A stretch of DNA of 64,000 nt, taken from the NCBI GenBank assembly GCA_025450175.1, contig JANWHY010000008.1, positions 56,289-120,288 of the forward strand, read 5' to 3'. The notes beneath the pieces were generated by a model. That model did not search any database and had not been told where the DNA came from. It was given only the letters and a program-made list of their open reading frames with translations. Made by a program: the position numbers and the translations under genes. This DNA is from Minisyncoccota bacterium. GTDB lineage: Bacteria > Patescibacteriota > Minisyncoccia > Phycocordibacterales > Zambryskibacteraceae. Below, piece by piece: positions 36,783-57,931 of the stretch. The stretch's first letter is position 1, and each line of letters starts with the position of its first letter.

Positions 36783-36791
36783 CTTTCATGT

Positions 36792-36863
36792 GCACCTGGC
36801 AGGACTCGAACCCACAACAACTGATCCGAAGTCAGTTATGATATCCATTTCACCACAGGTGCA
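36792..36863 (-). tRNA. tRNA-Arg (anticodon TCG)
   Basis: Hand-folded: acceptor GCACCTG/CAGGTGC, anticodon stem ACTGA/TCAGT with loop cuUCGga, T-loop TTCGAGT; boundaries +/-2. Confidence 0.75.
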
Positions 36864-36882
36864 TAGTATCCATTGTAACAGT

Positions 36883-36953
36883 GCGACTAGCGAGAATCGA
36901 ACTCGCGTCTCGTCCTTGGCAAGGACGCATTCTACCACTAAACCATAGTCGCA
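36883..36953 (-). tRNA. tRNA-Gly (anticodon GCC)
   Basis: Acceptor GCGACTA/TAGTCGC, anticodon stem CGTCC/GGACG loop ttGCCaa, T-loop TTCGATT; resembles canonical bacterial tRNA-Gly(GCC). Confidence 0.8.
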
Positions 36954-36995
36954 ATTAAGGAAGATATTAGCCTAATTTAGCTCGGGATGCTAGAG

Positions 36996-37066
36996 TAAAA
37001 ATTCACGGAGTGTAGTACAGCGGTAGTATACACGCTTCGGGTGCGTGAGACCCGAGTTCGATTCTC
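36996..37066 (+). tRNA. tRNA-Pro (anticodon CGG)
   Basis: C1:G72 pair and A73, anticodon stem CACGC/GCGTG loop ttCGGgt, T-arm CCGAG ttcgatt CTCGG. Confidence 0.78.
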
Positions 37067-37078
37067 GGCACTCCGAAG

Positions 37079-37149
37079 CTCAATTGAACGGGCTGTAGTA
37101 TAACGGTAGTATACATCCATGGGGTGGATGCGGCCCGGGTTCAATTCCC
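37079..37149 (+). tRNA. tRNA-Pro (anticodon GGG)
   Basis: C1:G72, anticodon stem CATCC/GGATG loop atGGGgt, T-arm CCGGG ttcaatt CCCGG. Confidence 0.75.
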
Positions 37150-37162
37150 GGCAGCCCGAAAG

Positions 37163-37235
37163 GAAAAAATAGCGGAGTGTGGTGTAACGGCTAACATACT
37201 TGTTTTGGGTACAAGTGACTCCGGGTTCGAATCCC
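37163..37235 (+). tRNA. tRNA-Pro (anticodon TGG)
   Basis: C1:G72, anticodon stem CTTGT/ACAAG loop ttTGGgt, T-arm CCGGG ttcgaat CCCGG. Confidence 0.78.
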
Positions 37236-37247
37236 GGCACTCCGAAA

Positions 37248-37318
37248 GAATAATAATGCGGGATTAGTTTAGTGGTAAAACGACAGTTTTCCAAACTGTA
37301 GTCGGGAGTCCGATTCCC
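37248..37318 (+). tRNA. tRNA-Gly (anticodon TCC)
   Basis: Acceptor GCGGGAT/ATCCCGC, D-arm TAGTTTAGTGGTAAAAC, anticodon stem ACAGT/ACTGT loop ttTCCaa; closely resembles Gram-positive tRNA-Gly(UCC). Confidence 0.8.
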
Positions 37319-37330
37319 CCATCCCGCACA

Positions 37331-38236: not shown

Positions 38237-39010
38237 CTATTTTAAGGTTATTTGGACAGGACAATGGTCTGAGCCATATACCTTGTCCATTATTTCTACT
38301 GACTTTATCTTTTTCAACACTTCTTTAGAGGCGAAGAAGTAGTCTATCCTCCATCCTACATTTCTCTCTCGGGCAAATGTTTTCTGATCCCAATATGTAT
38401 AAGCATCTTTTCTGTCTGGGTAAAAGTGGCGGAATACGTCTGCCCAACCGTGTTTAATAAGTTTATCCACCCAGGCTCTCTCTATAGGTAGGAAGCCTAC
38501 ATGGGTTTCATTCTCCTTGGGTCGAGCGAGGTCCACTGGGGTGTGAGCGACGTTAAAGTCCCCGCAAAGGATTATATTCGGGTGTTCCATGTGTAACTTA
38601 TCGGCAAATTCTAAGAAATGATCAAAGAAATCGAGTTTATATCGCAACCTTTCTGCTGGGCCGCCACCATTAGGAAAATATATGTTAATGAGTATAAAGT
38701 CCTTATATTGGGCCATTATTAAGCGCCCTTCTTGGTCCATCTTCTCTATACCTATATCACGTGAAACTTTTATAGGCTTCTCTTTACTATAAATAGCCAC
38801 CCCACTGTAACCCTTCTTCTCGGTAGGGAAGTGGAAATAAGCATGGTAGCCGTTTTTTAGATGCCCAAGCTCATCTGGGAGTTGTTCTGGCAGGCTCTTA
38901 GTTTCTTGGAGGCAGAGGATGTCAGGTTTCATCTGAAACATTTCCTGGATGTTGCCCTTGCGGTGGACAGCCCTTAAGCCATTGACGTTCCAGGAGATGA
39001 TTGTTGTCAT
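38237..39010 (-). CDS. xth: exodeoxyribonuclease III
   Basis: EEP fold motifs: ISWNVNGLR, LQETK, catalytic GSDHCPV at the C-terminus. Confidence 0.9.
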   Translation of the reverse strand: MTTIISWNVNGLRAVHRKGNIQEMFQMKPDILCLQETKSLPEQLPDELGHLKNGYHAYFHFPTEKKGYSGVAIYSKEKPIKVSRDIGIEKMDQEGRLIMAQYKDFILINIYFPNGGGPAERLRYKLDFFDHFLEFADKLHMEHPNIILCGDFNVAHTPVDLARPKENETHVGFLPIERAWVDKLIKHGWADVFRHFYPDRKDAYTYWDQKTFARERNVGWRIDYFFASKEVLKKIKSVEIMDKVYGSDHCPVQITLK

Positions 39011-39802: not shown

Positions 39803-40231
39803 TTGCAGTTAAGATACTTTATATACATGAATAAAAAAGTAATACTTGCTCTAATTGTTGTCGTAGGTATAGCAGGTGGTCTTATTTACAAATTTGGCCC
39901 GATTAGCTCGATTAATAAATTAACTGGTGAAATCACTGAAGTTGGTGAGAATTTTATAGTAGTGAAAGGCTATTTGAGAAAGGAAGGTCGGGTTGTCCAA
40001 TTTATTATTACACCCAATACAGAATTTAATAAATCTATTTTAGCTGTTAGTTCTGAGAAGCTAGCCGCTCCTGGCCCGGTTGCTCCTGAAAGAAGAATAG
40101 TTAAAGGAGAAAAAACTGATCTTGTTGTGGGCAAGGTTTTGGTAGTGTACAGCCAAGATAATTTACTAACCGTGAGTAAGACTGAGGCTATTAAGATTGA
40201 TTATGTAGGAGGTTATGAATTTTCTAAATAA
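39803..40231 (+). CDS. hypothetical N-terminally anchored protein
   Basis: TM VILALIVVVGIAGGLIY; likely true start ATG 39827 (MNKKV); overlaps next gene start. Confidence 0.5.
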   Translation: MQLRYFIYMNKKVILALIVVVGIAGGLIYKFGPISSINKLTGEITEVGENFIVVKGYLRKEGRVVQFIITPNTEFNKSILAVSSEKLAAPGPVAPERRIVKGEKTDLVVGKVLVVYSQDNLLTVSKTEAIKIDYVGGYEFSK

Positions 40232-42206
40232 TTTTATGAATAAGTTAAGATCAAGATTAATATATTTGCAAAAAAGATTTATATGGGTTGGTTTAGCTAT
40301 TGTGTTGTTAGCTAGTTTCTCTACTCACAACTCTATCCAAGCGGTTGCGGATTGGGATTGCATCACACCTTCTGCTGTTCAACAGTGGACCGGAGGTTTG
40401 CAGAATCCTTCAGTTTCAGCTGAGCAGGAGTGTGATGTTGAAACTGAGACTGGTTTTCATGCCACATCATTCTGGGCGAGCTACACAACTGATTATGAAA
40501 CTAGTGGTGAGTCTGCAATCACCTCTACTATGGCGGCTTGCGCCAGTGATGCCGATGGGGGCAATTCTTTGTGTGATTCTGCTGATACTTTTTCCATGTG
40601 TGGAGAGTGCCCCGGAGATCATTCAGGTTCTGCTACTGATAGTTTTATTGTAGACGCTCCTCCAGGCTCTAATTGGAAGATGGGAACTATTTTCATCTAT
40701 GTCTATGCTTCTCCTGACACTTCTCTTGTCTCAGCAGTAGGACAAATGGCTTTAGATCCTGTGCTTGATGATGGTGGAGCTCCTGTTCAATGTAATGATG
40801 GAGCGGATAATGATGGTGATAGTCTGATCGACTTTCCCAATGACCCAGGATGTGATGATGCAGCTGATAATGATGAAACAAATGGCGGGGGAGGACCTAC
40901 TCCTGAGCCCCCACCCCCACCTCCGTCACCAGTACCTCCAGGAACTCTCTATATATTGCCAAATCCAGTCCATGTCACTGTTGGTGAAGAAGTGTGGCTC
41001 TTCCCTTATGAAGATGACCACATTGGCAATGCTAGTGATTGGTACACGGCAGATGACGGTATCGCTACTCCTGTCTATGAGGTGAGTGATAAGGTTAGAG
41101 TCTTAGGAGTTTCTGTGGGTACCACAGAACTCTATTTTAGAGCCGGTATTCCATCAGAGCCGGCGACGATTATTGTTGAAGATCCTACACCACTAGCATG
41201 CCCCTTTTCGGCGCAATCTGGCAGAATAATAGTTAACTTTCCAGCACCCTACATTTATGATTCTGGCCCTCAAATTGATGCCACATCGGGACCTGTACCC
41301 ACCTCTATCCCCGCTGGTACCTACACTGTTAGTGCCTTCTCTTATGACTTTAGGCACTTACCACCAGGGGATGGTAGTCAGCCCCATGAGCAGTGGCTTG
41401 CTCAGTTATTCGATAGTTCTAGCAACCTCATACAAAGTACATCAGTGACCACCGAGTTGGGAGATGGTGAAATAAGTCATACTAATGCCCCTCTGAATGT
41501 GAACTTCGATGTTCCAGAAAATATTGCAAGTGTTAGTGCCTATATGCCGAGTTGGCCTCAATTTATAACTGCTAGCAGTATCACGCCAGGCTGTGTTGCC
41601 TTCGATTTAGTTTCTACGCAAACATTTGACTACGTCCTCTCTAACGCAGGCAATATATCTGTCACAAAATCTGCAACTGAGAATCGTAGCGTACAAAATA
41701 CTGTCACCAAGATACTTACCAATGGTTCAGCTGAGGCCGTGAGCTTGGATGTCTCGGGAGTGCCAAGCGGCGTATCTTATTCCATCTCTGGTATCAACTG
41801 CTCTCCGACTTGTCAGTCTGTAATTACCTTTACCGTTGCGCCAAGCGCTACCACGGGTACCTACCTCATCACTGTTACCGGGACTCCGCTCGGCCATCAA
41901 ACCTCTTTCAACCTCACCATTAACCCGGGCGCATTCGGCGCTACTTCTTGCAGTGTGGATCCTAATCCAAGCTTTGTAGGCAGAACGGCCTCCTTTACCT
42001 CCTCGGCTCAAGGCACCCCTCCAATAACTTACTTGTGGAGTGGTGATGTCCCCAGTCCAGCGCCTACCACGGCAAACTTCACTCATATCTACACCACGAG
42101 TGGACCGAAGAGTGTCACCGTCACCTTCACCGATGGAGATTCCAATATCGAGAGTTGTGTCCTCAACTTCAATGTAGTTCTCTCTCCCAACTTCCGTGAA
42201 TTTTAA
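40215..42206 (+). CDS. large secreted Cys-rich surface protein with Pro-rich linker and C-terminal Ig/PKD-like repeats (putative adhesin)
   Basis: Signal anchor, many Cys pairs, PTPEPPPPPPSPVPPG, C-terminal beta-sandwich-like repeats (ITYLWSGDV...TVTFTDGDSN); directly upstream of pilB. Confidence 0.6.
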   Translation: MNFLNNFMNKLRSRLIYLQKRFIWVGLAIVLLASFSTHNSIQAVADWDCITPSAVQQWTGGLQNPSVSAEQECDVETETGFHATSFWASYTTDYETSGESAITSTMAACASDADGGNSLCDSADTFSMCGECPGDHSGSATDSFIVDAPPGSNWKMGTIFIYVYASPDTSLVSAVGQMALDPVLDDGGAPVQCNDGADNDGDSLIDFPNDPGCDDAADNDETNGGGGPTPEPPPPPPSPVPPGTLYILPNPVHVTVGEEVWLFPYEDDHIGNASDWYTADDGIATPVYEVSDKVRVLGVSVGTTELYFRAGIPSEPATIIVEDPTPLACPFSAQSGRIIVNFPAPYIYDSGPQIDATSGPVPTSIPAGTYTVSAFSYDFRHLPPGDGSQPHEQWLAQLFDSSSNLIQSTSVTTELGDGEISHTNAPLNVNFDVPENIASVSAYMPSWPQFITASSITPGCVAFDLVSTQTFDYVLSNAGNISVTKSATENRSVQNTVTKILTNGSAEAVSLDVSGVPSGVSYSISGINCSPTCQSVITFTVAPSATTGTYLITVTGTPLGHQTSFNLTINPGAFGATSCSVDPNPSFVGRTASFTSSAQGTPPITYLWSGDVPSPAPTTANFTHIYTTSGPKSVTVTFTDGDSNIESCVLNFNVVLSPNFREF

Positions 42207-42251
42207 TTAACTCGCTCTCTTCATCTCGTGCCATGATAGAATTATTTAATC

Positions 42252-44006
42252 ATGCACATTAACGAGCAAGAATTAGAAAGTTTTATGATCGACTCGGGAC
42301 TTGTTACCGAGAAAGACATTACACTTGCTCGCGCAGAGGCGGAGAAAGAGGGGGCACTCCTCGGCAAGGTCCTAGTGCGTAAAGGCTTTCTCTCCGAAGA
42401 TGACCTGCGTAAGATGCAGGCTTATCTCCTGGGTATCCCATTTGTAGATCTTAAAAATCAGCGTCTAGATTTCTCTGTCTTATCGCTCATTCCAGAACCT
42501 GTGGCCAGGAACCACAACATCATCGCTTTCAAGAAGACCAATGACAGTCTCGAAGTAGCGATGCTTGATACCGAAGATCTGACGGCTATCGACTTCGTCA
42601 AGAAGAAGGTTGGTTTGAAGATCTTGCCTCGCCTCACCGACTCCGACTCTATGAAGTGGGCTCTCATGTCGTATCAGAAAACTCTTAAGGCCGAGTTCGG
42701 TGACCTTATCCAAGAAGAGGCTAAATCTCTTTCAAAGGTGGGTCCAGGAGTGGAGAGGGAAGATGTCTCAGAAGTAGAGTTGAAGAAGCTTGCTGCCGAT
42801 ATCCCAGTCGTGCGCATAGTCGACACACTACTTAAGCACGCCATCATCCAAGATGCCTCAGACATACACATCGAACCAGAAGAAGATAAGGTGCTTGTGC
42901 GTTATCGCATCGACGGCATCTTGCGAGATGCTATGGTCCTGCCTAAGAACACAGGCTCTGGTATTACCGCCCGTATAAAAGTGCTTTCCAACCTAAAGCT
43001 AGATGAGAAGAGGGTCCCGCAAGATGGGCGCTTCAAGATTGAGGCTGGCGAAGAAAGGGTCTCCTTCCGTGTCTCCACTCTACCTGTCTACTATGGAGAG
43101 AAGACGGTGATGCGTGTCCTTAGAGAAGGAGCTTCGGGATTTACTCTCGAGAGTTTGGGATTCCACGGACGAGGGTTAGAGGATCTCCATAGCTCAACCA
43201 AGGTTACGACCGGCATGATCTTGGCTACTGGTCCTACTGGTTCGGGTAAGACGACGACACTCTATACCATGCTCGATATTGTAAACACCCCAGATGTAAA
43301 CATTTCTACTATTGAGGATCCGGTGGAGTATCAGATGAAGCGCGTCAACCAAACCCAAGTAAGACCAGAAGTGGGGCTGACATTCTCCAATGGTCTGCGC
43401 GCTCTTGTGCGCCAAGATCCAGACATCATTATGGTGGGGGAGATCCGCGACAACGAGACGGCCTCCCTCGCTATCAACGCCTCGCTTACTGGGCACCTCG
43501 TCTTCTCTACCCTTCACACCAACTCAGCCGCAGGCGCCATCCCACGCCTACTTGATATGAAGGTGGAGCCCTTCCTCCTTGTCTCGACCTTAAATATTGT
43601 CATCGCTCAGCGCTTGGTCAGGAGGCTTGCTGCATCGAAGACCAAATACTTTTTAAACAAAGAAGAGCTCGACACACTTTCCAAATCTGTTTCTCTCGAT
43701 CGCATTCTCACGATATTGAAGGAGGAGAAAATTGTAGATAAGAAAGCTAAGTTCGAAGAAGTGCCATTCTGGAAGCCGATCCCGTCTAAAGATAGCGAGG
43801 ATGGTTACTCGAGCCGCATCGGTATCCACGAAGTTCTACCTGTCACCAACACTATTAAAGAGTTGATTATGAAAGGTGCTACTGCTAATGAGATTGAGGA
43901 GCAAGCCAAGACTGAAGGTATGATGACCATGCTTGAGGATGGCATCTTCAAAGCTGTCCAAGGTGTAACTACTATCGAAGAAGTGCTGCGGGTAATCTCA
44001 GAATAA
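42252..44006 (+). CDS. pilB: type IV pilus assembly ATPase PilB/GspE family
   Basis: N-terminal GSPII_E_N-like domain, Walker A ILATGPTGSGKTTT, Asp/His boxes, ~580 aa. Confidence 0.9.
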   Translation: MHINEQELESFMIDSGLVTEKDITLARAEAEKEGALLGKVLVRKGFLSEDDLRKMQAYLLGIPFVDLKNQRLDFSVLSLIPEPVARNHNIIAFKKTNDSLEVAMLDTEDLTAIDFVKKKVGLKILPRLTDSDSMKWALMSYQKTLKAEFGDLIQEEAKSLSKVGPGVEREDVSEVELKKLAADIPVVRIVDTLLKHAIIQDASDIHIEPEEDKVLVRYRIDGILRDAMVLPKNTGSGITARIKVLSNLKLDEKRVPQDGRFKIEAGEERVSFRVSTLPVYYGEKTVMRVLREGASGFTLESLGFHGRGLEDLHSSTKVTTGMILATGPTGSGKTTTLYTMLDIVNTPDVNISTIEDPVEYQMKRVNQTQVRPEVGLTFSNGLRALVRQDPDIIMVGEIRDNETASLAINASLTGHLVFSTLHTNSAAGAIPRLLDMKVEPFLLVSTLNIVIAQRLVRRLAASKTKYFLNKEELDTLSKSVSLDRILTILKEEKIVDKKAKFEEVPFWKPIPSKDSEDGYSSRIGIHEVLPVTNTIKELIMKGATANEIEEQAKTEGMMTMLEDGIFKAVQGVTTIEEVLRVISE

Positions 44007-44007
44007 T

Positions 44008-45219
44008 ATGGCCTTTTATAAGTACGAAGCTAAAGATAAAGAAGGGAAGATTTATGAGAAAACTGCCGAGGCTCATAGCCGTTACGATATCTACGCTCTC
44101 ATTCGCGAGGAAGGTGGCACTCCTGTCTCTATCCATGAAGTAAGGAAGATCAACCTCTTCGCCTCTTTTGAAAACCTTTTCGGCAATGTCAAAGCCGATC
44201 AGAAAATCAATTTTGCAAAAAATCTAGGGTTAATGATGGACGCCGGGCTCTCGGTCACTCGCGCACTCTCTGTCATGAGTCGCCAGTCCAAGCGTAAGGC
44301 TTTCAAAGTTCTTCTTACTGATATAGAGAACGACGTGAGTAAGGGCGAGACTCTCTCGGCCGCACTAGGTAAGAGGCCCAAGGTCTTCTCAGCCCTCTTT
44401 GTTTCTATGGTTAAGGCGGGGGAGGAGTCGGGGAATCTCTCGGGATCTCTCAACATTGTGGCAAGCCAGATGGAGAAGACTCACCTCTTGGTCAAGAAGG
44501 TGCGGGGGGCTCTCATCTATCCTGGCATCATCATTACGGTGATGCTCATCATAGGTGGACTCCTTCTTATATTTATGGTGCCGGTGATGACAGAGACCTT
44601 TGAGGGCATAGGGGCCCAGTTGCCACTCTCTACTCGTATACTCATTGGCTTAAGTGACTTTCTCATTGCCAATACCATCCTCGTGTTAGGAGGGTTAATG
44701 TTACTAGTACTTGGGGGGATTGCCTTCTTCAAAAGTGCGATGGGTCACCGCGTGGTGGACATAATAGTGCTACGTATCCCAGTGATTGGAGAAATTATCA
44801 AGGAGTTCGAGTCTGCGCGCACTACTCGCACTCTCTCCTCACTTCTTTCTGCCGGAGTAGAAATTATTGCCGCCATGGATACCACTCTCGAAGTAATCCA
44901 GAACCATTTGTATAAAAAAGTTTTGAAAAAAGCCCGGTCTGCCGTAGAGAAGGGCGAGCCTATCTCAACCGTCTTTGCTGAGAATAGTCGTATCTATCCA
45001 CTTTTTGTGGGAGAGATGATGGCCGTGGGAGAGGAGACGGGCAAGATCTCCGAAATGCTTATGAATGTAGCCACTTACTATGAGGGGGAAGTGGATCAGA
45101 AGACCAAGGACCTTTCCACTATCATCGAGCCTATCCTCATGATTATCATTGGTATAGGTGTAGGCTTCTTCGCCATATCCATGCTTGCTCCAACTTATTC
45201 ATTGGTCGACTACATCTAA
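44008..45219 (+). CDS. pilC: type IV pilus platform protein PilC/GspF family
   Basis: Two GspF repeats, polytopic, ~400 aa, coupled to pilB. Confidence 0.88.
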   Translation: MAFYKYEAKDKEGKIYEKTAEAHSRYDIYALIREEGGTPVSIHEVRKINLFASFENLFGNVKADQKINFAKNLGLMMDAGLSVTRALSVMSRQSKRKAFKVLLTDIENDVSKGETLSAALGKRPKVFSALFVSMVKAGEESGNLSGSLNIVASQMEKTHLLVKKVRGALIYPGIIITVMLIIGGLLLIFMVPVMTETFEGIGAQLPLSTRILIGLSDFLIANTILVLGGLMLLVLGGIAFFKSAMGHRVVDIIVLRIPVIGEIIKEFESARTTRTLSSLLSAGVEIIAAMDTTLEVIQNHLYKKVLKKARSAVEKGEPISTVFAENSRIYPLFVGEMMAVGEETGKISEMLMNVATYYEGEVDQKTKDLSTIIEPILMIIIGIGVGFFAISMLAPTYSLVDYI

Positions 45220-45668
45220 TGCATAAGTTTAAAAAATATAATCAAGGATTCACCTTCGTCGAAGTGGTGATCGCTATTGCTATCCTGATCCTCTTCACCG
45301 TTGGTGTGTATCGTGGATATCGAGCAGTCTATGATGCTCTCGCCGCCGCTCACCATAAGGCTCTAGCTGTCGACCTGGTAAACGAGCGCTTCGAGATTAT
45401 TAAGAACCTTCCATACGCAAGTGTTGGCACAGTAGGCGGAGTGCCGGTAGGGGTCATCACTCCGGTGCAAAACACTACTCGGGACAATGTCGCCTTCCGC
45501 ATCACCACTGCAATAGTAAATGTCGATGATCCTTTCGATGGTGTGGCTCCGGCTGATGCCTTCCCTCGGGATTACAAACTCGTAGAACTCAAGGTGGAGT
45601 GTGTCACTTGCCGTATGAGTCCAGTGACTATTACTGGTAGAGTGGCTCCCACGAATCTTGAAAGTTAA
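45219..45668 (+). CDS. type IV prepilin (class III signal peptide)
   Basis: MHKFKKYNQGFTFVEVVIAIAILILF: G/F cleavage motif with Glu+5 and hydrophobic helix. Confidence 0.8.
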   Translation: MHKFKKYNQGFTFVEVVIAIAILILFTVGVYRGYRAVYDALAAAHHKALAVDLVNERFEIIKNLPYASVGTVGGVPVGVITPVQNTTRDNVAFRITTAIVNVDDPFDGVAPADAFPRDYKLVELKVECVTCRMSPVTITGRVAPTNLES

Positions 45669-46272
45669 TATGACAAACTTCCGAACAAAAGGTTTCACCC
45701 TCATAGAATTCCTTCTTTCGGTATCTATTGCTATTGTGGTTGGCTTCGTCGTCTCCACTTTTATGAAAGATATTATCGGCTTGGGGTCGAAGGCTCAGTC
45801 CAACATGACAGCGGTACTCGAGAGTAGGAAGATTTTGTCTGTTATTGTCTCGGAGTTACGCTCCACCATTCCCTCAGCTCTAGGTTCTTATGCTATTGAG
45901 ACTGCCGCCACAAGTTCTGTAACCTTCTTTGCAGATGTAAACTCCGATGACATCGCCGATCGCGTAAGATATTTCCTCGATCCCCCTACTAAAAGTATTA
46001 AGAGAGGAGTGATACTTGCATCTGGTACTCCCCCGGCCTATACCTTGCCAGAAACTTTCTCCACTCTTATCTCAGGAGTATCGAACAGTACCTCTACCCC
46101 AATATTTAATTATTACGATGCCGCTTACGACGGCACGACGAACCCTCTTACATTCCCAATCAATATTACTTCGGTGCGCCTGATTAAGGTGACCGTGTGG
46201 GTCAACGACCCGAAGGGGACAGATCCTGTCATCATGACCTCACAAGCCATGTTAAGAAATCTCAAAGACTAG
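45658..46272 (+). CDS. type IV prepilin-like protein (second pilin)
   Basis: ...TKGFTLIEFLLSVSIAIVVGF class III signal. Confidence 0.8.
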   Translation: MKVNMTNFRTKGFTLIEFLLSVSIAIVVGFVVSTFMKDIIGLGSKAQSNMTAVLESRKILSVIVSELRSTIPSALGSYAIETAATSSVTFFADVNSDDIADRVRYFLDPPTKSIKRGVILASGTPPAYTLPETFSTLISGVSNSTSTPIFNYYDAAYDGTTNPLTFPINITSVRLIKVTVWVNDPKGTDPVIMTSQAMLRNLKD

Positions 46273-46275
46273 AAT

Positions 46276-47727
46276 ATGAAGAATTACACTAAAGGATATT
46301 TATTGATTCAGGTTCTTGTCTTCGGTGCTATCGCTATTGTGGTGATCACTGGGTTGATTGCTTACGCTGGTGCCAATATTAAGCTAGGCCGACGCGTGGT
46401 CTTGTCCGAACAAGCTTTCCAGATGGCTGAGGCAGGACTTGAGTATTATCGCTGGCACTTAGCTCACAATCCCACAGACTACACAGATGGGACCGGCCAA
46501 CCAGGGCCCTATGTAAAACAGTTTAGAGATAAAAATGGCGTACTTCTTGGCACCTTTACTCTTACCATAACCCAACCAGTAATAGGCTCAAGCTTAGTAC
46601 TAATACAGTCTAAGGGCGTCCCTGCAGCTGACCCAACGGTCAAGAGAACTCTCGTTACGAAGTTGGCTATTCCTTCCTTTGCTAACTATGCCTTCGTCAC
46701 TGAGGCGGCCATGCGCTTCGGCTCTGGTACAGAAGTCTTTGGGCCGATACACTCGAATAGCGGTATACGCTTCGACGGTCTAGCACACAATCTTGTCACT
46801 AGCTCTCTCTTCGCTTATGACGATCCAGATCACTCAGGCAACAACGAGTTTGGCGTCCATACTCACGTCAATGCTCCTCCCGGTAGTGGCACTACGGACA
46901 GCTTCCGTTCTCTAGAAGCTCCGTCCAATCCGGTACAGATCAGGCAAGACGTCTTCATGGCTGGGCGCTCCTTCCCTGCACCGACTGTAAACTTCGCCGA
47001 TATCCAGACAGATCTCAATCAGATGAAGATTGATGCTCAAGCTAGTGGTCGTTACTTCGCCGCCTCTGGAGCTCAGGGTTATAGAGTTGTTTTGAAAACA
47101 AATGACACCTTCGATCTCTATCGTGTTAACACTTTGCAAAGTGTGCCAGGAGGTTGCGACGCTTCCTCTGGTCAGTCTGGGTGGGGGTCTTGGAGTACTA
47201 ATGGAGTAACTCTGCTTGGTAACTATCCCTTCCCAGTTAATGGTCTTGTCTTCCTTGCTGACCACACGTGGGTGGAAGGTACTATCAATACAGCAAGGCT
47301 CACCATCGTAGCAGCTCGTCTGCCAGACGATAATACGAGCTTACGCAAATCTATTACTGTAAATGCTGATGTTCGCTACACCAACTACGACGGTACTGAT
47401 GCTCTCGCGCTCATCGCCCAAAACAATATTAATGTCGGCATGAACAGCGCTAATACTCTTAGGATCGATGCCGCCGTGATCGCTCAGTATGGTCGAGTCG
47501 GTAGGTATTACTACGAAGATGATTGTAGTCCTTATGACACACGCAACACTATTACCTTGTACGGGACACTTATCACCGACCAGCGTTACGGCTTCGCCTA
47601 TACCGATGGCAGCGGCTACCAGACTCGTAACCTCATCTATGACTCCTTCCTGCTCTATAGCCCCCCACCATACTTTCCTAAGACAGGGGACTACCACGAA
47701 GTTATTTACTGGAAGGAGATAGACTAG
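46276..47727 (+). CDS. large pilin-like / minor pilin (PilX/PilY-like?) protein
   Basis: Degenerate prepilin N-terminus KGYLLIQVLVFGAIAIVVI (Gln at +5 instead of Glu) followed by a ~450 aa domain. Confidence 0.5.
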   Translation: MKNYTKGYLLIQVLVFGAIAIVVITGLIAYAGANIKLGRRVVLSEQAFQMAEAGLEYYRWHLAHNPTDYTDGTGQPGPYVKQFRDKNGVLLGTFTLTITQPVIGSSLVLIQSKGVPAADPTVKRTLVTKLAIPSFANYAFVTEAAMRFGSGTEVFGPIHSNSGIRFDGLAHNLVTSSLFAYDDPDHSGNNEFGVHTHVNAPPGSGTTDSFRSLEAPSNPVQIRQDVFMAGRSFPAPTVNFADIQTDLNQMKIDAQASGRYFAASGAQGYRVVLKTNDTFDLYRVNTLQSVPGGCDASSGQSGWGSWSTNGVTLLGNYPFPVNGLVFLADHTWVEGTINTARLTIVAARLPDDNTSLRKSITVNADVRYTNYDGTDALALIAQNNINVGMNSANTLRIDAAVIAQYGRVGRYYYEDDCSPYDTRNTITLYGTLITDQRYGFAYTDGSGYQTRNLIYDSFLLYSPPPYFPKTGDYHEVIYWKEID

Positions 47728-49890: not shown

Positions 49891-50868
49891 TTAGTACGAT
49901 CTCTCTAAGATTAGCTGACCAAGATTGTCGAAAAGCTTTACTGTCTCATAATCTTCTGCCCACATCTCCCAACCTCTACCAAGGAAAACTCTCCAAGTAT
50001 CTAGAGAGAAGTTCGGGTCAGAAGCATGATAAGCAATGCAGCCATTGTAGCTGAAATGAGCTTTTACGAAGGCAAGACAGGCACTTGAGACGGGCTTCCT
50101 GTCAACGCAATTGGTGCAAACATTCCCGTTTTGATCACGAGTATCAAACTCTGGGATGTGGCAACTACTTAGGCGGTCTATCACATCGCGACAGGCTGTA
50201 TCTAGACTCGCGACTCCGAGCTCATCTTCGGGCATTGGACATTGGCGAGAGAGGGATGGGGTGAAGTTATACTCTGGCAAATCTTCTAGATAGCCAGTGC
50301 AAATATTTTCCTTGAAGCTTGCGAAGTGATAGCGCGAGTCGGATGGCGGTAAACCAGTGGTGATAATAGCCGTCTCTCCGGGCTTAAGTATAATATTTTG
50401 TAATTGATTATTGGTAGAAGGGGATATGGTACGTATGCCCCGAGGTATGAAAGCTGTTTCAGCTGGGAAAAATTTTAAAGAATCACCACCAGTATTGTAG
50501 CCCCTGGTATCTCGACCATTCTTAAGTTGCCAGCCAGTGATATTGAGAGAAGTCTCACCTCTGTTTTCGAGAGTGATGTACTCTTCATATGGCTGGATAG
50601 CGTACTCGGCGTTACCTCGGCCCAAAGTTACGTCGCGGCTGTATGAGCTTACTGCCTGGCTTCCTATCTTGGTCAACTCGCTCTTATCGCTATATGAGGA
50701 AGAGGAGTTATTGTTATAAAGACTTGTTTTATCTGGGTTTGATCTGCCTCCCATGAGTACAATCACAATCAAAACAGCCAAAATCACTACCGCATCCATG
50801 TTGCCAGCACCTCTATTCATGGTTCGATTGCACTCACCATGACCCTGAGGTTTTATCGAATGGGTCAT
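49891..50868 (-). CDS. membrane-anchored protein with lamin-tail-like (LTD) domain
   Basis: N-terminal TM, central ITLENRGETSLNITGWQLKNG...LKPGETAIITTG pattern reminiscent of LTD domains, Cys-rich C-terminus. Confidence 0.45.
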   Translation of the reverse strand: MTHSIKPQGHGECNRTMNRGAGNMDAVVILAVLIVIVLMGGRSNPDKTSLYNNNSSSSYSDKSELTKIGSQAVSSYSRDVTLGRGNAEYAIQPYEEYITLENRGETSLNITGWQLKNGRDTRGYNTGGDSLKFFPAETAFIPRGIRTISPSTNNQLQNIILKPGETAIITTGLPPSDSRYHFASFKENICTGYLEDLPEYNFTPSLSRQCPMPEDELGVASLDTACRDVIDRLSSCHIPEFDTRDQNGNVCTNCVDRKPVSSACLAFVKAHFSYNGCIAYHASDPNFSLDTWRVFLGRGWEMWAEDYETVKLFDNLGQLILERSY

Positions 50869-50886: not shown

Positions 50887-52527
50887 GTGTTAAAATACTC
50901 AAATATGTATCCCGAGCTATTGGAATCTCTTTTTGCCGCACGCGGTATCTCGAGAGATGAGCAAAACGATTTTCTTAACCCTGACTACAGTAAGCTCCAC
51001 GATCCGAGCCTTCTTCCCGATATTGAAAAGGCTAGCGACAGAGTCATTGCCGCTATGGCTAAGGGTGAGCACATTACCGTCTTCTCCGACTATGATGCTG
51101 ATGGGATCCCAGGAGCGGTAGTGCTCTCGGACTTCTTCCGTCGCGCTTGCTACGACAATATCTCTTTTTACATCCCACACCGACATAACGAAGGTTTCGG
51201 TCTCAACCTCACCGCGATAGAAGAGTGTTCTAGTCGTTCTACCAAACTTCTTATCACTGTAGATTGTGGTGTCTCGGATATAGAAGAAGTGAAGGCTGCC
51301 AATGATGCGGGGATAGACGTTATCATCACCGACCATCATGAGCCGTCTCTTCTAGGTTTGCCACCTGCCTATGCGGTTGTGAATCCCAATAGACCGGATT
51401 CCAAATATCCCTTCCATGGGCTCTGTGGCTCGGCAGTGGTCTTCAAGCTAGTGCAAGCGATTCTTACCAAAGAATCTTTTGGCATTAAACCAGGGCTCGA
51501 GAAGTGGTCACTGGACATGGTCTCGATCGCGACTCTCTCAGACATGGTGCCCTTGGTAGGGGAGAACAGGATCCTCTCGCGCTTCGGCCTAGAAGTATTA
51601 CGTAAGTCTCCTCGCCCTGGTATAAGAGCCTTATTAAGAAGGTTGAATATTGAGCAGAAGAATCTGACCGAAGACGATATCACCTTCATGATCACTCCGC
51701 GCATCAACGCCGCCTCGCGGATGGGAGTACCCGAAGACGCCTTCAACCTCTTGAGAACAGAAGACCAGCTCGAGGCCGAGAGATTAGCCCTTCACCTAGA
51801 GAAGATTAACAATATGAGGAAGGGCGTGGTGGCTGGGATTGTAAAAGAAGCTAAGGGAGAGTTAGCGAAGAGGGAAAAGATTGCTGAGGTCATAGTGATC
51901 GGCAACCCTGAGTGGCGCCCAGCACTCTTGGGACTCGTGGCCAATAGTCTTGTAGAAGAGTATGAGCGACCAGCCTTCGTCTGGGGGAGAGATGGCGATG
52001 GTATGCTCAAGGGCTCGTGCCGCTCTTACAATGGCTATGACTTGTTCCTTCTTATGAATGCGGTTTCGGATACTCTGCTTGAGTTCGGGGGACATAAGGG
52101 GGCGGGAGGGTTCTCCATCACTTTAGAGCAGTTAACAGTCCTAGAAGAGAAGCTCTCAGAAGCTCTTAAGACTCTCTCTAGTGAGGAAGCAAAAGTGGAA
52201 AACAATTTGAGTATAAGTTTGTCTGATATTGGAGAGAGCTTGTGGGGAGTAGTATCTCAGTTTGCCCCATTTGGTATGGGTAACGAGAAGCCCGTCTTCA
52301 AAATCTCAAACGCTCCTATCAAGAGCGTCCGCCAGTTTGGCAAAGCCAATGAACATTTAGAAGTAACTCTCGCCCCCAACATTAAGGCCATCTCTTTCTT
52401 TTCCTCTCCTACTACTTACTCTTTACTACCCACTGCCAACTCTTGTACCCTTCTTGCCAACCTAGAGAAGTCCTACTTCCGCAACCGCCCAGAACTACGT
52501 TTAAGAATTGTTGGTATAGAGCCATGA
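50887..52527 (+). CDS. recJ: single-stranded-DNA-specific exonuclease RecJ
   Basis: DHH motifs (FSDYDADGIPG, ITDHHEP), DHHA1 domain. Confidence 0.9.
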   Translation: MLKYSNMYPELLESLFAARGISRDEQNDFLNPDYSKLHDPSLLPDIEKASDRVIAAMAKGEHITVFSDYDADGIPGAVVLSDFFRRACYDNISFYIPHRHNEGFGLNLTAIEECSSRSTKLLITVDCGVSDIEEVKAANDAGIDVIITDHHEPSLLGLPPAYAVVNPNRPDSKYPFHGLCGSAVVFKLVQAILTKESFGIKPGLEKWSLDMVSIATLSDMVPLVGENRILSRFGLEVLRKSPRPGIRALLRRLNIEQKNLTEDDITFMITPRINAASRMGVPEDAFNLLRTEDQLEAERLALHLEKINNMRKGVVAGIVKEAKGELAKREKIAEVIVIGNPEWRPALLGLVANSLVEEYERPAFVWGRDGDGMLKGSCRSYNGYDLFLLMNAVSDTLLEFGGHKGAGGFSITLEQLTVLEEKLSEALKTLSSEEAKVENNLSISLSDIGESLWGVVSQFAPFGMGNEKPVFKISNAPIKSVRQFGKANEHLEVTLAPNIKAISFFSSPTTYSLLPTANSCTLLANLEKSYFRNRPELRLRIVGIEP

Positions 52528-52985
52528 TCATTATTTATACAGATGGATCTTCAAGAGGAAACCCGGGACCGGGAGGGTGGGCGGGGATTGTTATAGATGA
52601 TAAAAAAGTTAAAGAGATCGGTGGTAGAGAGGATCATACAACAAATAACCGCATGGAGTTAACTGGCGCTATTAGGACATTAGAATCTGTTGACGAAAAA
52701 GATTTAGAAATCTATACAGACTCCGAATACGTTATGAAAGGTATGACCGAATGGGTCCATAATTGGCAGATAAAAGGATGGAGAACTGCAGCCAAGAAAG
52801 CAGTTCTAAATCAGGATCTATGGCAAGAACTTTTAAGAGTAAGTGAAGACAAAAATATTAATTGGAAGTATGTGGCTGGCCACTCTGGAGACAAGATGAA
52901 TGATAGATGCGATGAGATTGCAACGAGCTTTGCGGACGGATTAGCCCCATCCCTTTATGACGGACCGCGTAGCCAATATAAATAA
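52524..52985 (+). CDS. rnhA: ribonuclease HI
   Basis: IYTDGSSRGNPGPGGWAG, TNNRMEL, YTDSEYV motifs; ATGA overlap with the recJ stop. Confidence 0.9.
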   Translation: MIIIYTDGSSRGNPGPGGWAGIVIDDKKVKEIGGREDHTTNNRMELTGAIRTLESVDEKDLEIYTDSEYVMKGMTEWVHNWQIKGWRTAAKKAVLNQDLWQELLRVSEDKNINWKYVAGHSGDKMNDRCDEIATSFADGLAPSLYDGPRSQYK

Positions 52986-54447
52986 GACTCTTGTATTTAT
53001 TGTAGGGGTTCTCTTGGCAGTTTTTATCTCTTCATTCCTTTTTATCCCACCACTATTAAGTGTATTTATAATATTTGTGGGAATTTGCGTGTGGCTATGT
53101 GAGAAGATTTATAAGAAAGAGGTTTCTCAAGAAGTAATTCTGCTTTTACTCATCATTATCTCCGTCGGTTTAGGAAGTTTGCGCTATGGGGTAAAAGATT
53201 TCCACGAAGATGTCCTACCAACTCTTAATGGAATTGTGATAAGTGAACCGGCAGAGAAGGAAAACTCAACTAGATTTATTCTTCGTTCTAGTAATGGTGA
53301 GAAGATAATAGTCAGTACAGACTTATATAGCCCAGTTATGTATGGTGATGAGGTAAGGGTAGAGGGCAAGCTAGATAAACCTGGGGTTATCGAGGAGGAA
53401 GACGGTCGAACTTTCGATTATGCGAAATTCTTATCTAAGGATGATATCTACTACACTCTAAATTTTGGCAAGGTAGAAGTTGTGTCTCGTGGTCATGCCT
53501 CCAGTATAAAGCGCGGATTACTTCGGATAAAAGGAGCTTTGGTCTCGAGGATCAAGGCTATACTGCCCGAGCCAGAATCAAGCTTACTTGCCGGGCTAAT
53601 CGTGGCGGGGAAGGCGGGGATGCCTCAAGCTATTCTTGATGAGTTTAAGAGAGCGGGCGTAATCCACATAGTGGTACTCTCGGGTTACAACATTACTATT
53701 ATTGCCGACTTTATCAGGAAAATTTTTGAACAAATTTTCACCAGAGTTAAGCTTCCTCGTATGCCTCAACTAGCCGCGGGCACTTCCCTCTTCCTTATAC
53801 TCCTCTTCGTACTTGCGACTGGGGCCGAAGCTACGGTGGTTCGGGCGGCTCTTATGGTTTCTACAGTCATTGCGGCTAAACTCTTTGGTAGAAACTACTC
53901 CGCTCATCGCGCGCTCATCGCTGCAGCTTTTATCATGATACTCGTTAACCCCAAGATTCTGGTCTTCGATCCATCCTTCCAACTCTCTTTCATCGCTACT
54001 GCTTCTCTTATTTATATCTCTCCACTTATCTCGCGACTTATTAAAAGGTTGTCTGATAAGTGGGGTGTACGCTCTATGCTTGCAACCACCATTGGCACCC
54101 AGATTGGGGTGTTGCCCTTCCTTATCTACTCTATGGGGCAACTCTCGCTCGTATCTTTTCCTACCAATATTCTTATCCTTCTCGTTATCCCTTACGCCAT
54201 GCTTCTTGGCTTTGCTGCCGCGTTACTTGCCTTTGCCTCACCCATACTTGCTCTACCGATATCATATCTTACACACTTAATCTTGGCGTGGATTCTCTTT
54301 GTAGCAGAACTCTTTGGCAATCTCTCTTATGCTTCTGTTGGTGTACCTACCTTCTCCTTCTCGCTAGTGGTTCTTGCCTATATCGGACTAATTATTGCTT
54401 TGTGGCGTTTGCGTATCTACTTTCGACACTCTGCCAATTTAAGTTAG
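52957..54447 (+). CDS. comEC: ComEC/Rec2 DNA internalisation channel (membrane competence domain only)
   Basis: N-terminal OB/DUF4131-like region, Competence domain with HIVVLSGYNITII, multiple TM helices; lacks a C-terminal MBL domain. Confidence 0.8.
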   Translation: MTDRVANINKTLVFIVGVLLAVFISSFLFIPPLLSVFIIFVGICVWLCEKIYKKEVSQEVILLLLIIISVGLGSLRYGVKDFHEDVLPTLNGIVISEPAEKENSTRFILRSSNGEKIIVSTDLYSPVMYGDEVRVEGKLDKPGVIEEEDGRTFDYAKFLSKDDIYYTLNFGKVEVVSRGHASSIKRGLLRIKGALVSRIKAILPEPESSLLAGLIVAGKAGMPQAILDEFKRAGVIHIVVLSGYNITIIADFIRKIFEQIFTRVKLPRMPQLAAGTSLFLILLFVLATGAEATVVRAALMVSTVIAAKLFGRNYSAHRALIAAAFIMILVNPKILVFDPSFQLSFIATASLIYISPLISRLIKRLSDKWGVRSMLATTIGTQIGVLPFLIYSMGQLSLVSFPTNILILLVIPYAMLLGFAAALLAFASPILALPISYLTHLILAWILFVAELFGNLSYASVGVPTFSFSLVVLAYIGLIIALWRLRIYFRHSANLS

Positions 54448-54994
54448 AGAAAAAGTCTTCGACGTACTGCTTCTTACCCGAAGGTTGGTAGTCTGCTACA
54501 TAAGAGTGCTCCCACATATCCAGAGCAAGTATAGGGATACATTGAGAGAGTTGGCCAAGGTGTTGCTCGTCTACCCAATAATTCAAAAGCCTATCAGAGA
54601 CCTTGTCGTATCCTAATATTGCCCAACCTATGCCCCGAGTAAGAGCAATGGCTTTAAATCTATTGAGCCAGAATTCATATGATGGCCATTCTTCATTACC
54701 TTTCTGTCCTAAGGGGCCACTCGAGTTTACTGCTTGAGGCCCACCCTCAAAATGTGAGAAATAAATTTCGTGATTTCTCATACCGTTGAACTCGAAGGAA
54801 AAGCGGCGCTGTATCTCGCCCAGAGCATATGCATTCGACTCAGAATCTTTAGCGTATTCATCAATTTTCGCGAGGATGGTGTTAGCGTTCTTCACATACC
54901 CGCTATAGAGCTTGAGGTGTTCCTCAATAGTTTTCTCTGAGATGCCCTTAAGTGCGGGTATATTAAACTTCTTTTCTTCGAATTGTGTAGCCAT
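54392..54994 (-). CDS. sodA: Fe/Mn superoxide dismutase
   Basis: Metal ligands and signature DMWEHSYV, ~200 aa. Confidence 0.9.
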   Translation of the reverse strand: MATQFEEKKFNIPALKGISEKTIEEHLKLYSGYVKNANTILAKIDEYAKDSESNAYALGEIQRRFSFEFNGMRNHEIYFSHFEGGPQAVNSSGPLGQKGNEEWPSYEFWLNRFKAIALTRGIGWAILGYDKVSDRLLNYWVDEQHLGQLSQCIPILALDMWEHSYVADYQPSGKKQYVEDFFSNLNWQSVESRYANATKQ

Positions 54995-55017
54995 AAAGGA
55001 ATTATAATATAAATATT

Positions 55018-55875
55018 ATGAAGTTTGTAAAAAGATACTTCCGCGAGCTTATAGTGGCAGGACTGATTCTTGCCAATATCTTTGTCTTCCTCGCTATGCA
55101 CGCTAGGGGGGCGAGTGGGCTCTTGCGGGTCTACTTTCTAGATATTGGTCAGGGTGATGCCATCTTTATCGACTCACCGACTCACGGCCGTATGCTGATA
55201 GATGGTGGGAAGAATAGGAAAGTGGTAAGTGAGTTAGGCTCAATCCTGCCTTTTGCTGACAATAGAATCGATCTTGTGCTTGCCACGCATCCAGATGCCG
55301 ACCATATTGGAGGGTTACCAGAAGTCTTCGCTCGATACGATGTTTCTGCCTATCTTTATCCTGGAGTGAGATCAGAAAATAATATAGATGAGGAATTAGA
55401 TAAAAGGGTAGAGGCAGAGGGGGCAACAAAAGTGCTTGCCAGGCGTGGTATGGTTGTAAACTTTGGGGACGGAGCGAAGCTTGAAATCCTCTTTCCAAAT
55501 CAAGACGTTAATAATTGGGAGACCAATAGAGCCTCAGTGGTAGCAAAACTTGTTTATGGTGAGAAATCCTTTCTACTAACCGGCGACTCTCCCATAGATA
55601 TAGAAAATGTTTTAGTGCGACTCGATAAAGCAGATCTTGATATAGATGTGCTAAAGGCTGGTCATCATGGGTCTCGTACCTCTACTTCACTTGCCTTTGC
55701 CGAAGCTACGAGTCCAGAATATGCCGTGATCTCAGCTGGTAAGGACAATACATATGGCCATCCACACAAAGAAGTTTTAGATATTTTGAAAAAAGTAGGG
55801 GCAAAAGTTGTAAGCACTATAGATATGGGGACCATCGAGTTTGAAACAGATGGGAAGATTTTGGAAATGAGATAA
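55018..55875 (+). CDS. ComEC-type metallo-beta-lactamase domain protein (stand-alone ComEC C-terminal domain)
   Basis: N-terminal TM, LDIGQGDAIFI, HPDADHIGG (HxHxDH), AGHHGS; matches the ComEC C-terminal nuclease domain. Confidence 0.78.
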   Translation: MKFVKRYFRELIVAGLILANIFVFLAMHARGASGLLRVYFLDIGQGDAIFIDSPTHGRMLIDGGKNRKVVSELGSILPFADNRIDLVLATHPDADHIGGLPEVFARYDVSAYLYPGVRSENNIDEELDKRVEAEGATKVLARRGMVVNFGDGAKLEILFPNQDVNNWETNRASVVAKLVYGEKSFLLTGDSPIDIENVLVRLDKADLDIDVLKAGHHGSRTSTSLAFAEATSPEYAVISAGKDNTYGHPHKEVLDILKKVGAKVVSTIDMGTIEFETDGKILEMR

Positions 55876-55907: not shown

Positions 55908-56141
55908 TCAGTCTTTCGGGAATACCAGCCTCTCAAGTGAGGTTCGGTCTCCGGGATGTCGCCGCCTGATTGCGAGATAGCCTGTCGAGCAGATGATTGT
56001 TCCGATGATAATTAGCGAGCCTCCTGTCCCCGCCATGTTGGTGAATAGGTCCACCCCTTTTATGGCATGCAGTACCAATCCAGCAGCTGTTAGAGCGATA
56101 CCGCTACCAATGAGTGTGGTGCCACTCAGTATTAACATCAT
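55908..56141 (-). CDS. small two-TM membrane protein (hypothetical)
   Basis: 77 aa hydrophobic ORF between two terminators. Confidence 0.35.
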   Translation of the reverse strand: MMLILSGTTLIGSGIALTAAGLVLHAIKGVDLFTNMAGTGGSLIIIGTIICSTGYLAIRRRHPGDRTSLERLVFPKD

Positions 56142-57212: not shown

Positions 57213-57253
57213 AGGGCGACTCTCCAGGATTCCTGGATTGTCGCCCTTTGTTA
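57213..57253. terminator. nested-stem bidirectional terminator
   Basis: aaAGGGCGACtcTCCAGGAttcCTGGAttGTCGCCCTttgtt, immediately 3-prime of the minus-strand gene and downstream of the M50 gene. Confidence 0.65.
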
Positions 57254-57931
57254 TTGAGAGGAACCGTAAGAGCCCGGTAGTCGAGCGTCGAACCAGCGAG
57301 AATGCGCTTCCCCTACGTTGAGTTCTTTTTGGAACCGCTTGTAGCGGAAGCAGATTGATCGGTGGTTAAGTCTTTCATCGACTAGCTTCGCCCGGACGAA
57401 ACCCGCAAGCATGTGCATATAGACGTGAGGTAAGGTTGCGAGGAAAAGTTCATGCTCGAAGAGTTCTTGCAGACTCCTTGCTGGAACAATAGGGAAGGAG
57501 AATAGCCATTCTAGATACTTCATACGATGCTCTGTCTTTACATTGAGCTTCGAGCAGGCATGAAGCATGAACCTAATTGATCCAAAAAAGGGAGTTTGAG
57601 AAAAACAGCCTCTCCCTTCTCTGTCTAGGTTGTATTCCATCTGGTGGAAGATCGCTTCCCCTAAGCCCCGGCATTTTTCAGGTAGGGAGTGAGTTGTGTC
57701 TTGCCACAGCGTGATGTAATGCCTACAGGTCTGCCTAAACTGATAGAGAGCCTCCACTACGAGAGCTCGTTCTTCCTCTCTGAGGGAGAACTGCCTCACT
57801 AGTTTTTCCAACAGCCGTCTCTCAACGTTGAGGAATGTTGCCTCTTTGGTGTCCTGGGGCAGATGATTGCCCAAGATCGCCTCTAAGCGTTCCGTTGCGT
57901 CCATCTGCCACCTCCATGTATAAAATAACAT
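57251..57931 (-). CDS. hypothetical protein with atypical composition (W/H/C/R-rich)
   Basis: 226 aa ORF, codon choice visibly different from neighbours (frequent CAG, CTG, AGG, CGG), no recognisable motif, own terminator. Confidence 0.55.
   Translation of the reverse strand: MLFYTWRWQMDATERLEAILGNHLPQDTKEATFLNVERRLLEKLVRQFSLREEERALVVEALYQFRQTCRHYITLWQDTTHSLPEKCRGLGEAIFHQMEYNLDREGRGCFSQTPFFGSIRFMLHACSKLNVKTEHRMKYLEWLFSFPIVPARSLQELFEHELFLATLPHVYMHMLAGFVRAKLVDERLNHRSICFRYKRFQKELNVGEAHSRWFDARLPGSYGSSQ

Follow-up and report, generated by a model that had tools for sequence, protein, structure and literature searches.

Here we show that the competence protein ComEC is encoded as two separate genes, with a superoxide dismutase (SOD) gene lying antisense between them, in a 64,000-nucleotide (nt) stretch of the genome of a Minisyncoccota bacterium (assembly GCA_025450175.1, contig JANWHY010000008.1, positions 56,289 to 120,288 of the forward strand), referred to below as the window. 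The upstream gene specifies the DNA channel and the downstream gene the metallo-beta-lactamase (MBL) nuclease domain, and we consider it probable that the two products are subunits of one ComEC whose halves reassemble in the membrane. The three open reading frames (ORFs) and the two intervals that interlock them, in window coordinates, are as follows.

52957..54447, plus strand: comEC N-piece (channel), 496 amino acids (aa); Pfam DUF4131 and Competence, no Lactamase_B
54392..54994, minus strand: Fe/Mn superoxide dismutase (sod), 200 aa; Pfam Sod_Fe_N and Sod_Fe_C
55018..55875, plus strand: comEC C-piece (nuclease), 285 aa; one transmembrane (TM) helix and Lactamase_B
54392..54447: convergent 3'-end overlap of the channel gene and sod, 56 nt
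54995..55017: divergent AT-rich spacer of sod and the nuclease gene, 23 nt between the start codons

All three products (496, 200 and 285 aa) are recorded as called genes on one 126,386-bp NCBI contig, the GC content is unremarkable across the region, and the closest named relatives of the window proteins belong to Candidatus Zambryskibacteria and other Parcubacteria, which places the source among the uncultured Patescibacteria (Candidate Phyla Radiation, CPR). The order channel>sod<nuclease (sod antisense, both halves in the same direction) was found in 15 non-redundant loci from independent assemblies, and is therefore not an effect of chance or of assembly. This confirmed that the two-gene ComEC with sod antisense between its halves is the real layout, common to many related genomes. 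A preliminary description of this DNA, made from the letters alone, had claimed that the Competence-domain protein ends without an MBL domain, that a separate TM-anchored MBL protein of 285 aa follows it, and that a complete Fe/Mn SOD lies on the opposite strand with its 3' end overlapping comEC by ~55 nt. Domain annotation of the ORFs and comparison with related genomes bore these claims out, the overlap being exactly 56 nt, and both the split and the antisense sod proved to be conserved.

Pfam analysis of the 496-aa protein revealed DUF4131 (PF13567, an oligonucleotide/oligosaccharide-binding (OB) fold; E 1.8e-11) and Competence (PF03772; E 2.1e-47, aa 214-485), and Lactamase_B was absent from it. 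The protein consists of N-terminal TM helices, the OB fold, the Competence channel through TM10 and a short basic cytoplasmic tail. The aromatic FDYxxY/F segment at the channel mouth, counterpart of Y169/Y172 in the solved ComEC, was present, and F153, Y155 and L159 were invariant among eight aligned relatives. The 120 best channel homologues were all 428-526 aa long and carried DUF4131 and Competence only. Shorter channel ORFs were met in single contigs: loci L021 (2991-4331) and L023 (2991-4496) encode an identical nuclease protein but channel ORFs of 446 and 501 aa, respectively, and the channel ORF of L001 (2213-3547) ends before TM10. For the short ORFs of L021 and L001, premature stops at strain level or errors of sequencing within the last channel helix are possible causes.

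The 285-aa protein matched Lactamase_B in Pfam (E 3e-13), and its top match in NCBIfam was TIGR00361 (ComEC/Rec2), at positions 411-661 of 663 (E 2e-41). All six of its sequence matches in the PDB were ComEC (best E 1e-33), the best alignment extending over the preceding TM helix, and its best fold matches were likewise the ComEC nuclease domain, in libraries that hold the isolated domain only and no full-length ComEC. The protein starts with a K/R-rich segment (MKFVKRYFRE) followed by a single hydrophobic helix (aa 11-29); aa 9-35 align to residues 509-535 of the solved ComEC, the helix thus being homologous to TM11. It is predicted to be an N-in, C-out membrane anchor that would place the nuclease outside, as in fused ComEC. 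In a neighbour-joining tree of nuclease domains, which is rough and without support values, the protein stood beside fused ComECs, at a distance from the orphan MBL proteins that Firmicutes and further bacteria outside CPR carry. It thus groups with ComEC C-terminal domains and not with generic MBL hydrolases, the placement that the preliminary description had named as fatal to its reading. One detail of that description needed correction: the motif given as HxHxDH is HPDADH (aa 91-96), that is H-x-D-x-D-H, the form of motif II found in ComEC nuclease domains (PMC12455585). The predicted metal ligands were 93-100% conserved over 297 stand-alone homologues: D95, H96, D190, H216 and H217 in 297/297, D47 in 294/297, H248 in 293/297, N170 in 288/297, and H91 and D93 in 277/297. 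The Mn2+ site in ComEC's C-terminal domain is formed by three His, four Asp and one Asn (PMC8579336), and the conserved residues of the 285-aa protein fit this ligand set. The ComEC nuclease is Mn2+-dependent (PMC8579336), and two reports describe the isolated domain as active alone in vitro (PMC8579336; PMC13539106). Judged by its residues, the nuclease half looks active and of ComEC type.

Together, the two proteins make up one complete ComEC. On the 663 positions of TIGR00361 the 496-aa protein covered 82-385 and the 285-aa protein 411-661, jointly within 82-661, with scores of 89.7 and 141.7 bits, both below the cut-off of 190.05. Being two ORFs with an antisense gene between them, each scoring below the cut-off, the pair falls outside the ComEC/Rec2 equivalog, which is framed for one polypeptide. 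When aligned to the solved full-length ComEC of Neomoorella carbonis (30bt_A, 801 aa), the 496-aa protein corresponded to residues 144-496 and the 285-aa protein to residues 509-789, which places the break in the cytoplasmic loop between TM10 and TM11. No portion of ComEC is lost or duplicated, and the summed length (496 + 285 = 781 aa) may be set beside the 788-827 aa of the fused ComECs met in this analysis. In the cryo-electron microscopy structure of ComEC, TM10 and TM11 lie on the periphery of the channel, with no TM11 in the map of one protomer and a short cytoplasmic helix between the two; what holds the nuclease domain in position is a small, conserved contact to the OB fold and not its flexible linker (PMC13539106). 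By analogy with this structure, the TM10-TM11 loop is a site where a break of the chain should be tolerated. With the two pieces concatenated into one chain, AlphaFold2 returned a model with a mean predicted local distance difference test (pLDDT) score of 87.8 and a predicted template modelling (pTM) score of 0.67, with confidence lowest at the junction. It was made with a 43-row alignment, a 121-row alignment having been set aside as misaligned (channel rows at ~22% identity); single-sequence AlphaFold2 of the joined pieces gave a pLDDT of 40. The identities of the nuclease and channel halves to the window proteins were tightly correlated (r = 0.96, n = 14 loci), the pattern expected of co-inherited partners.

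To place the window among its relatives, we gathered 17 genome loci, 6 loci obtained by exact-protein look-up and 80 metagenome loci, and classed them by hidden Markov models built here. The split architecture occurred in dozens of independent assemblies from different studies, with both halves full length and their motifs conserved at 40-76% identity. Among 1.84 billion representatives of 50%-identity clusters, 5,903 proteins matched the nuclease half at E <= 1e-30. Of the best 150 of these, 143 were 204-328 aa long and only two were fused ComECs (788 and 798 aa, 42-44% identity); the 120 best nuclease-half homologues measured 273-317 aa. Gene order was counted over 41 informative non-redundant loci of the split clade.

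channel>sod<nuclease: 15/41 loci
sod<nuclease, upstream sequence cut off: 4/41 loci
sod<nuclease, channel gene not upstream: 2/41 loci
halves directly adjoining or sharing a few bases, out of frame with each other: 10/41 loci
other genes between the halves: 5/41 loci
no channel gene within 2-8 kb upstream: 5/41 loci

In the abutting loci the break always fell after TM10 and a short basic tail. The genes found between the halves elsewhere varied, and as read from the sequence included a guanylate kinase-like gene, a 196-aa membrane protein and a lipoprotein-like ORF. The channel>sod<nuclease arrangement was found down to 40% nuclease identity and was scattered over several sub-branches; hence it is old, or ancestral to much of the clade.

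The nuclease-domain tree contained three groups, as follows.

Group 1: orphan MBL proteins from outside CPR (Firmicutes and other bacteria)
Group 2: dominated by fused ~809-aa ComECs; sister to the split group
Group 3: large, holding the window protein; no fused form

Judged from these sequences, the split is of old standing and has become fixed across a large clade. Two loci, L056 (4445-6876) and L069 (3-1176), nest among the fused ~809-aa ComECs and yet are split after TM10, with ORFs overlapping by a few bases. This suggests either that fission recurred independently at the same site or that these two loci carry frameshift errors. Insertion of sod as the cause of the fission in one step was considered as well; the neighbour-joining tree is too rough to order the two events. 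Group 1 is the tree position of loci L009-L017 (Tissierellaceae, Varibaculum, Pseudobacteroides, Clostridia and a myxobacterium), which encode ComEC-like MBL proteins of 300-460 aa with 31-39% identity to the window nuclease, several of them with long N-terminal extensions or signal- or lipoprotein-like leaders. No channel gene was detected beside these MBL genes in flanks of mostly ~8 kb per side (less on the short contigs L015-L017).

The gene between the halves encodes a complete SOD, with both Pfam domains above their cut-offs (Sod_Fe_N 31.6 bits against 27; Sod_Fe_C 72.5 bits against 20.9) and all four metal ligands in place (H in IEEH, H in RNHE, and D and H in DMWEH). Its best PDB match was the Fe-SOD of Aquifex pyrophilus (1coj, E 8e-24), with which it shares both domains, the four ligands and a length of ~200 aa. 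In the alignment of the two, IEEH/IEPH, NHE/LHE and D-x-W/Y-E-H were conserved, as they were in 20 relatives. Unlike the Aquifex enzyme, the protein is divergent and fell below every NCBIfam equivalog cut-off (best 94 bits against 300), so that no Mn- or Fe-specific assignment resulted. No hydrophobic leader was evident when its N-terminus was read. SOD genes are common in Patescibacteria, especially those of oxic groundwater (PMC8672522).

At its 3' end, sod shares coding sequence with the channel gene. The tail of the channel protein (...RHSANLS) is the antisense of the conserved SOD segment NLNWQSV, and the recurrent ...HSAN ending of the channel proteins of relatives is likewise an antisense reading of the conserved SOD motif NW..V. 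The overlap was 30-79 nt in close relatives, and 17 nt, 4 nt or a gap in distant loci. No terminator was found between the convergent channel gene and sod by a generic scan, which is weakly informative, or by eye.

At its 5' end, sod is separated from the nuclease gene by a spacer of about 14-40 nt in many loci, and in L001 and L003 the two start codons overlap (ATGTTTTCAT). Elements of this spacer were read by eye. On the minus strand, the window and six close relatives (L001, L002, L003, L018, L021 and L024) have TATAAT ending 6 nt ahead of the sod ATG, and TAnnnT stands at the same 6-nt spacing in four more distant loci. On the plus strand of the window, TATAAT (55003-55008) ends 9 nt before the nuclease ATG, and in close relatives TATAAT or TATACT ends 6-9 nt before it. 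The window spacer holds no Shine-Dalgarno sequence at the usual distance from either start. From this pattern we infer two overlapping promoters that would yield leaderless or near-leaderless sod and nuclease mRNAs. A Fur/PerR-type operator was also sought in the spacer; the only candidate, a 7-2-7 AT palindrome (55004-55019), was rejected, being a mismatch to the 7-1-7 box and not conserved in relatives.

The occupant of the slot appears less stable than the slot itself. Divergence of SOD and nuclease was poorly correlated (r = 0.37). The SOD of L024 (176-781) is of the sub-type of L005/L006, though the L024 nuclease belongs to the clade of the window, and a different SOD may have taken the place of the original one in this locus. 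About 26 residues of the N-terminal hairpin are missing from the SODs of L001, L003 and L021.

According to the explanation that we favour, gene fission in the TM10-TM11 cytoplasmic loop would have given rise to two ComEC subunits. Subunit 1 (52957-54447) would provide the OB fold and the DNA channel, and subunit 2 (55018-55875) TM11 and a Mn-type MBL nuclease, its basic N-terminus cytoplasmic and its catalytic domain facing outward. TM11 would pack at the channel periphery and the nuclease would dock on the OB fold at the channel mouth, so that one DNA strand could be degraded and the other imported. Acting together with ComM, RecJ and the type IV pilus, whose genes lie close by, such an apparatus could serve transformation and/or nucleotide scavenging. 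The sod gene, predicted to encode a cytoplasmic Fe/Mn SOD, would have stood between the halves from an early stage of the lineage, and is now interlocked with both through its 3' overlap with the channel gene and the 23-nt putative promoter region shared with the nuclease gene. With sod interlocked antisense between the halves, the nuclease gene must have its own promoter. The preliminary description had concluded that channel and nuclease are uncoupled. This holds only for the organisation of genes and transcripts; as to function, the co-divergence of the halves (r = 0.96) and the conserved ligands favour joint work.

Several points weigh against a reassembling two-subunit ComEC. The loci are partial contigs, and the presence of both halves was judged per contig and not per genome. 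The nuclease gene had no channel gene within 2-8 kb upstream in five loci, and two further loci keep sod but not the channel gene beside it; the nuclease gene thus need not be linked to the channel gene. Outside CPR, too, there are stand-alone ComEC-like MBL proteins, so that an independent function is possible for proteins of this kind. Binding of the two polypeptides to each other is presumed, the structure model having been made from an artificially joined chain, and their overall domain arrangement lies beyond a fold comparison whose libraries hold only the isolated nuclease domain. In a different explanation, the nuclease descends from a ComEC domain but now acts as a lone membrane-anchored surface nuclease or phosphodiesterase, digesting external DNA for nucleotide salvage, while the channel works without a dedicated nuclease or with another one. 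In its favour, the nuclease gene has a putative promoter region of its own and, in several relatives, no linkage to the channel gene, and antisense sod precludes any sensible co-transcription of the two; orphan ComEC-like MBL proteins occur in non-CPR bacteria, the isolated ComEC nuclease domain is active in vitro as cited above, and CPR bacteria are thought to scavenge DNA for nucleotides (PMC6744442). However, the protein has retained a homologue of TM11, and not a signal peptide or lipobox, and its divergence tracks that of the channel protein. Moreover, the two ORFs of ten loci adjoin directly or share a few bases, like translationally coupled partners, and no fused alternative was seen in the clade. 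We regard a lone nuclease, the main rival of the two-subunit ComEC, as unlikely. That the split is an artefact or a product of decay, by frameshift, mis-assembly or disruption of a ComEC pseudogene by sod, is barely credible. The truncated channel ORFs of single contigs (446 aa in L021 against 501 aa in L023, and the early end in L001) would fit it, but the same architecture recurs in dozens of independent assemblies, the halves are full length with motifs conserved at 40-76% identity, the gene between them is intact and conserved, and the GC content is unremarkable.

A further proposal adds to the two-subunit ComEC and does not compete with it, namely that the position of sod is itself functional. 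Through promoters overlapping back to back with those of the nuclease gene and through convergence on the channel gene, oxidative stress or Mn/Fe status would set the balance of SOD, nuclease and channel by promoter competition and antisense interference. The adjacency sod<nuclease is the most conserved of all (21/41 loci, including the two from which the channel gene has moved away), the spacer is short, with a -10 hexamer at constant spacing from sod and another 6-9 nt from the nuclease ATG in close relatives, a Mn2+-dependent ComEC nuclease is paired with a Fe/Mn-family SOD, and no terminator was found between the convergent genes, although the scan behind this is weakly informative. Against these stand the many relatives with other genes or nothing at the site, the poor correlation of SOD and nuclease divergence with one SOD seemingly swapped, the ease with which -10-like hexamers arise in AT-rich spacers, the lack of a recognisable Fur/PerR-type operator on inspection of the spacer, and the tight packing and overlaps that are usual in this genome; the evidence for it is a pattern of sequence. 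We hold a functional position of sod to be quite doubtful. Its specific form is improbable: sod and the nuclease gene would be a conserved divergent pair whose leaderless promoters overlap and exclude each other, and transcripts of sod would extend antisense into the channel gene's 3' end. If sod were no passenger, DNA uptake in these ultra-small bacteria would respond to oxidative stress or Mn/Fe status through a regulatory coupling of competence to SOD without a described counterpart. The sod linkage is a curiosity.

The channel gene closes a compact recJ-rnhA-comEC string, whose order is conserved in L018, L021 and L003. The recJ stop and rnhA start overlap as ATGA (52524-52527), and rnhA overlaps the comEC channel gene by 29 nt (52957-52985), close packing of this kind, overlaps included, being the rule in this genome. 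The longest ORF of rnhA (from TTG 52443) is probably over-extended, ATG 52524 being the likely start. Other genes with DNA-uptake or DNA-processing functions lie further upstream, the type IV pilus cluster being 5-12 kb from comEC.

50887..52527, plus strand: recJ; DHH, DHHA1 and RecJ_OB (Pfam); same neighbour in relatives
52524..52985, plus strand: RNase HI (rnhA); RNase_H E 1.4e-42, match from aa 29 of the longest ORF
40215-47727: type IV pilus cluster, including a 663-aa protein with a weak PKD match
42252-44006: PilB-type ATPase of the cluster
44008-45219: PilC of the cluster
45219-45668: pilin with N-methylation motif
within the pilus cluster: two ORFs of 204 and 483 aa without a Pfam match, which could be minor pilins
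38237-39010, minus strand: ExoIII-family nuclease (Exo_endo_phos), DNA-processing function
24550-26085, minus strand: ComM/YifB-type Mg-chelatase-family AAA+ protein, DNA-processing function

As far as gene content can tell, a neighbourhood with pilus, ComM, RecJ and RNase H genes speaks for a functional machinery of DNA uptake. Work on a cultivated Saccharibacterium found comEC to be required for transformation and dispensable for growth (PMC10633639). Four other features of the surroundings were recorded. A 325-aa protein divergent from recJ (49891-50868, minus strand) has a weak lamin-tail-domain match below the Pfam cut-off, and a lamin-tail-domain protein occupies the same position beside recJ in L003, L018 and L021. 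A 77-aa hydrophobic ORF (55908-56141, minus strand) converges on the nuclease gene. A 226-aa ORF without a Pfam match (57251-57931, minus strand) lies between an M50 protease gene and rpsL; it had no match in any of the 17 genome loci, and the look-up loci carry other genes nearby. Six tRNA genes are clustered on both strands at 36791-37328 (Rfam).

Comparison with canonical ComEC/Rec2 (B. subtilis ComEC, Neomoorella carbonis 30bt and TIGR00361) revealed the same three modules in the same order and with the same total length (781 aa), the HxDxDH motif and Asn/Asp/His ligands, and the same predicted topology, in a window that also holds type IV pilus, ComM and RecJ genes. It differs in being two polypeptides, broken after TM10, that are not co-transcribable because of the antisense sod. 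A channel without its own covalently attached active nuclease is also known from S. pneumoniae ComEC and from H. pylori ComEC/ComE3, which has no MBL domain. In S. pneumoniae the ComEC MBL domain is inactive, and a separate membrane-bound nuclease, EndA, degrades the non-transported strand (PMC12455585), which provides a precedent for action in trans. Unlike in S. pneumoniae, the nuclease proposed here to act in trans is ComEC's own domain, which carries a TM helix, and not an unrelated EndA-type enzyme. The orphan ComEC-like MBL proteins of bacteria outside CPR, Firmicutes among them (for example L009-L017), with which we group the pneumococcal phosphorylcholine esterase Pce among the nearest known systems, occupy a branch of the tree separate from the nuclease of the window.

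The missing fused MBL domain of CPR ComEC has already been published: Meheust et al. 2019 (PMC6744442) describe a separate protein family, and Pimentel and Zhang 2018 (PMC6299819) treat the DUF4131+Competence ('DC') profile as domain gain or loss. The separate TM-anchored nuclease, the break point and the sod arrangement are absent from both descriptions as far as their accessible text goes. No description of a separate TM11-nuclease subunit, of the break point or of the sod-comEC arrangement was found in the searchable literature, outside which most subscription-journal papers lie. The NCBI pipeline names many of the stand-alone nucleases 'ComEC/Rec2 family competence protein'.

These findings bear on how ComEC is surveyed and modelled. 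Surveys score CPR or 'DC-profile' ComECs as nuclease-less, and recent mechanistic papers leave the fate of the non-transported strand in such variants open. Current structural models stress contacts between domains of the same chain, and the split protein offers a natural test of a ComEC nuclease acting in trans. It also provides small, separately expressible nuclease and channel subunits for biochemistry, and the place where the chain recurrently breaks, after TM10, is one that the structure permits and that could be used to engineer a split ComEC. The basic picture of ComEC action is left unchanged by all of this. In this lineage the ComEC nuclease has not been lost but is a TM-anchored protein of its own, usually encoded adjoining the channel gene or one gene away. 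Since the separate nuclease is found across a clade of great size and diversity, conclusions that the domain has been 'lost' should be revised, in this lineage at the least.

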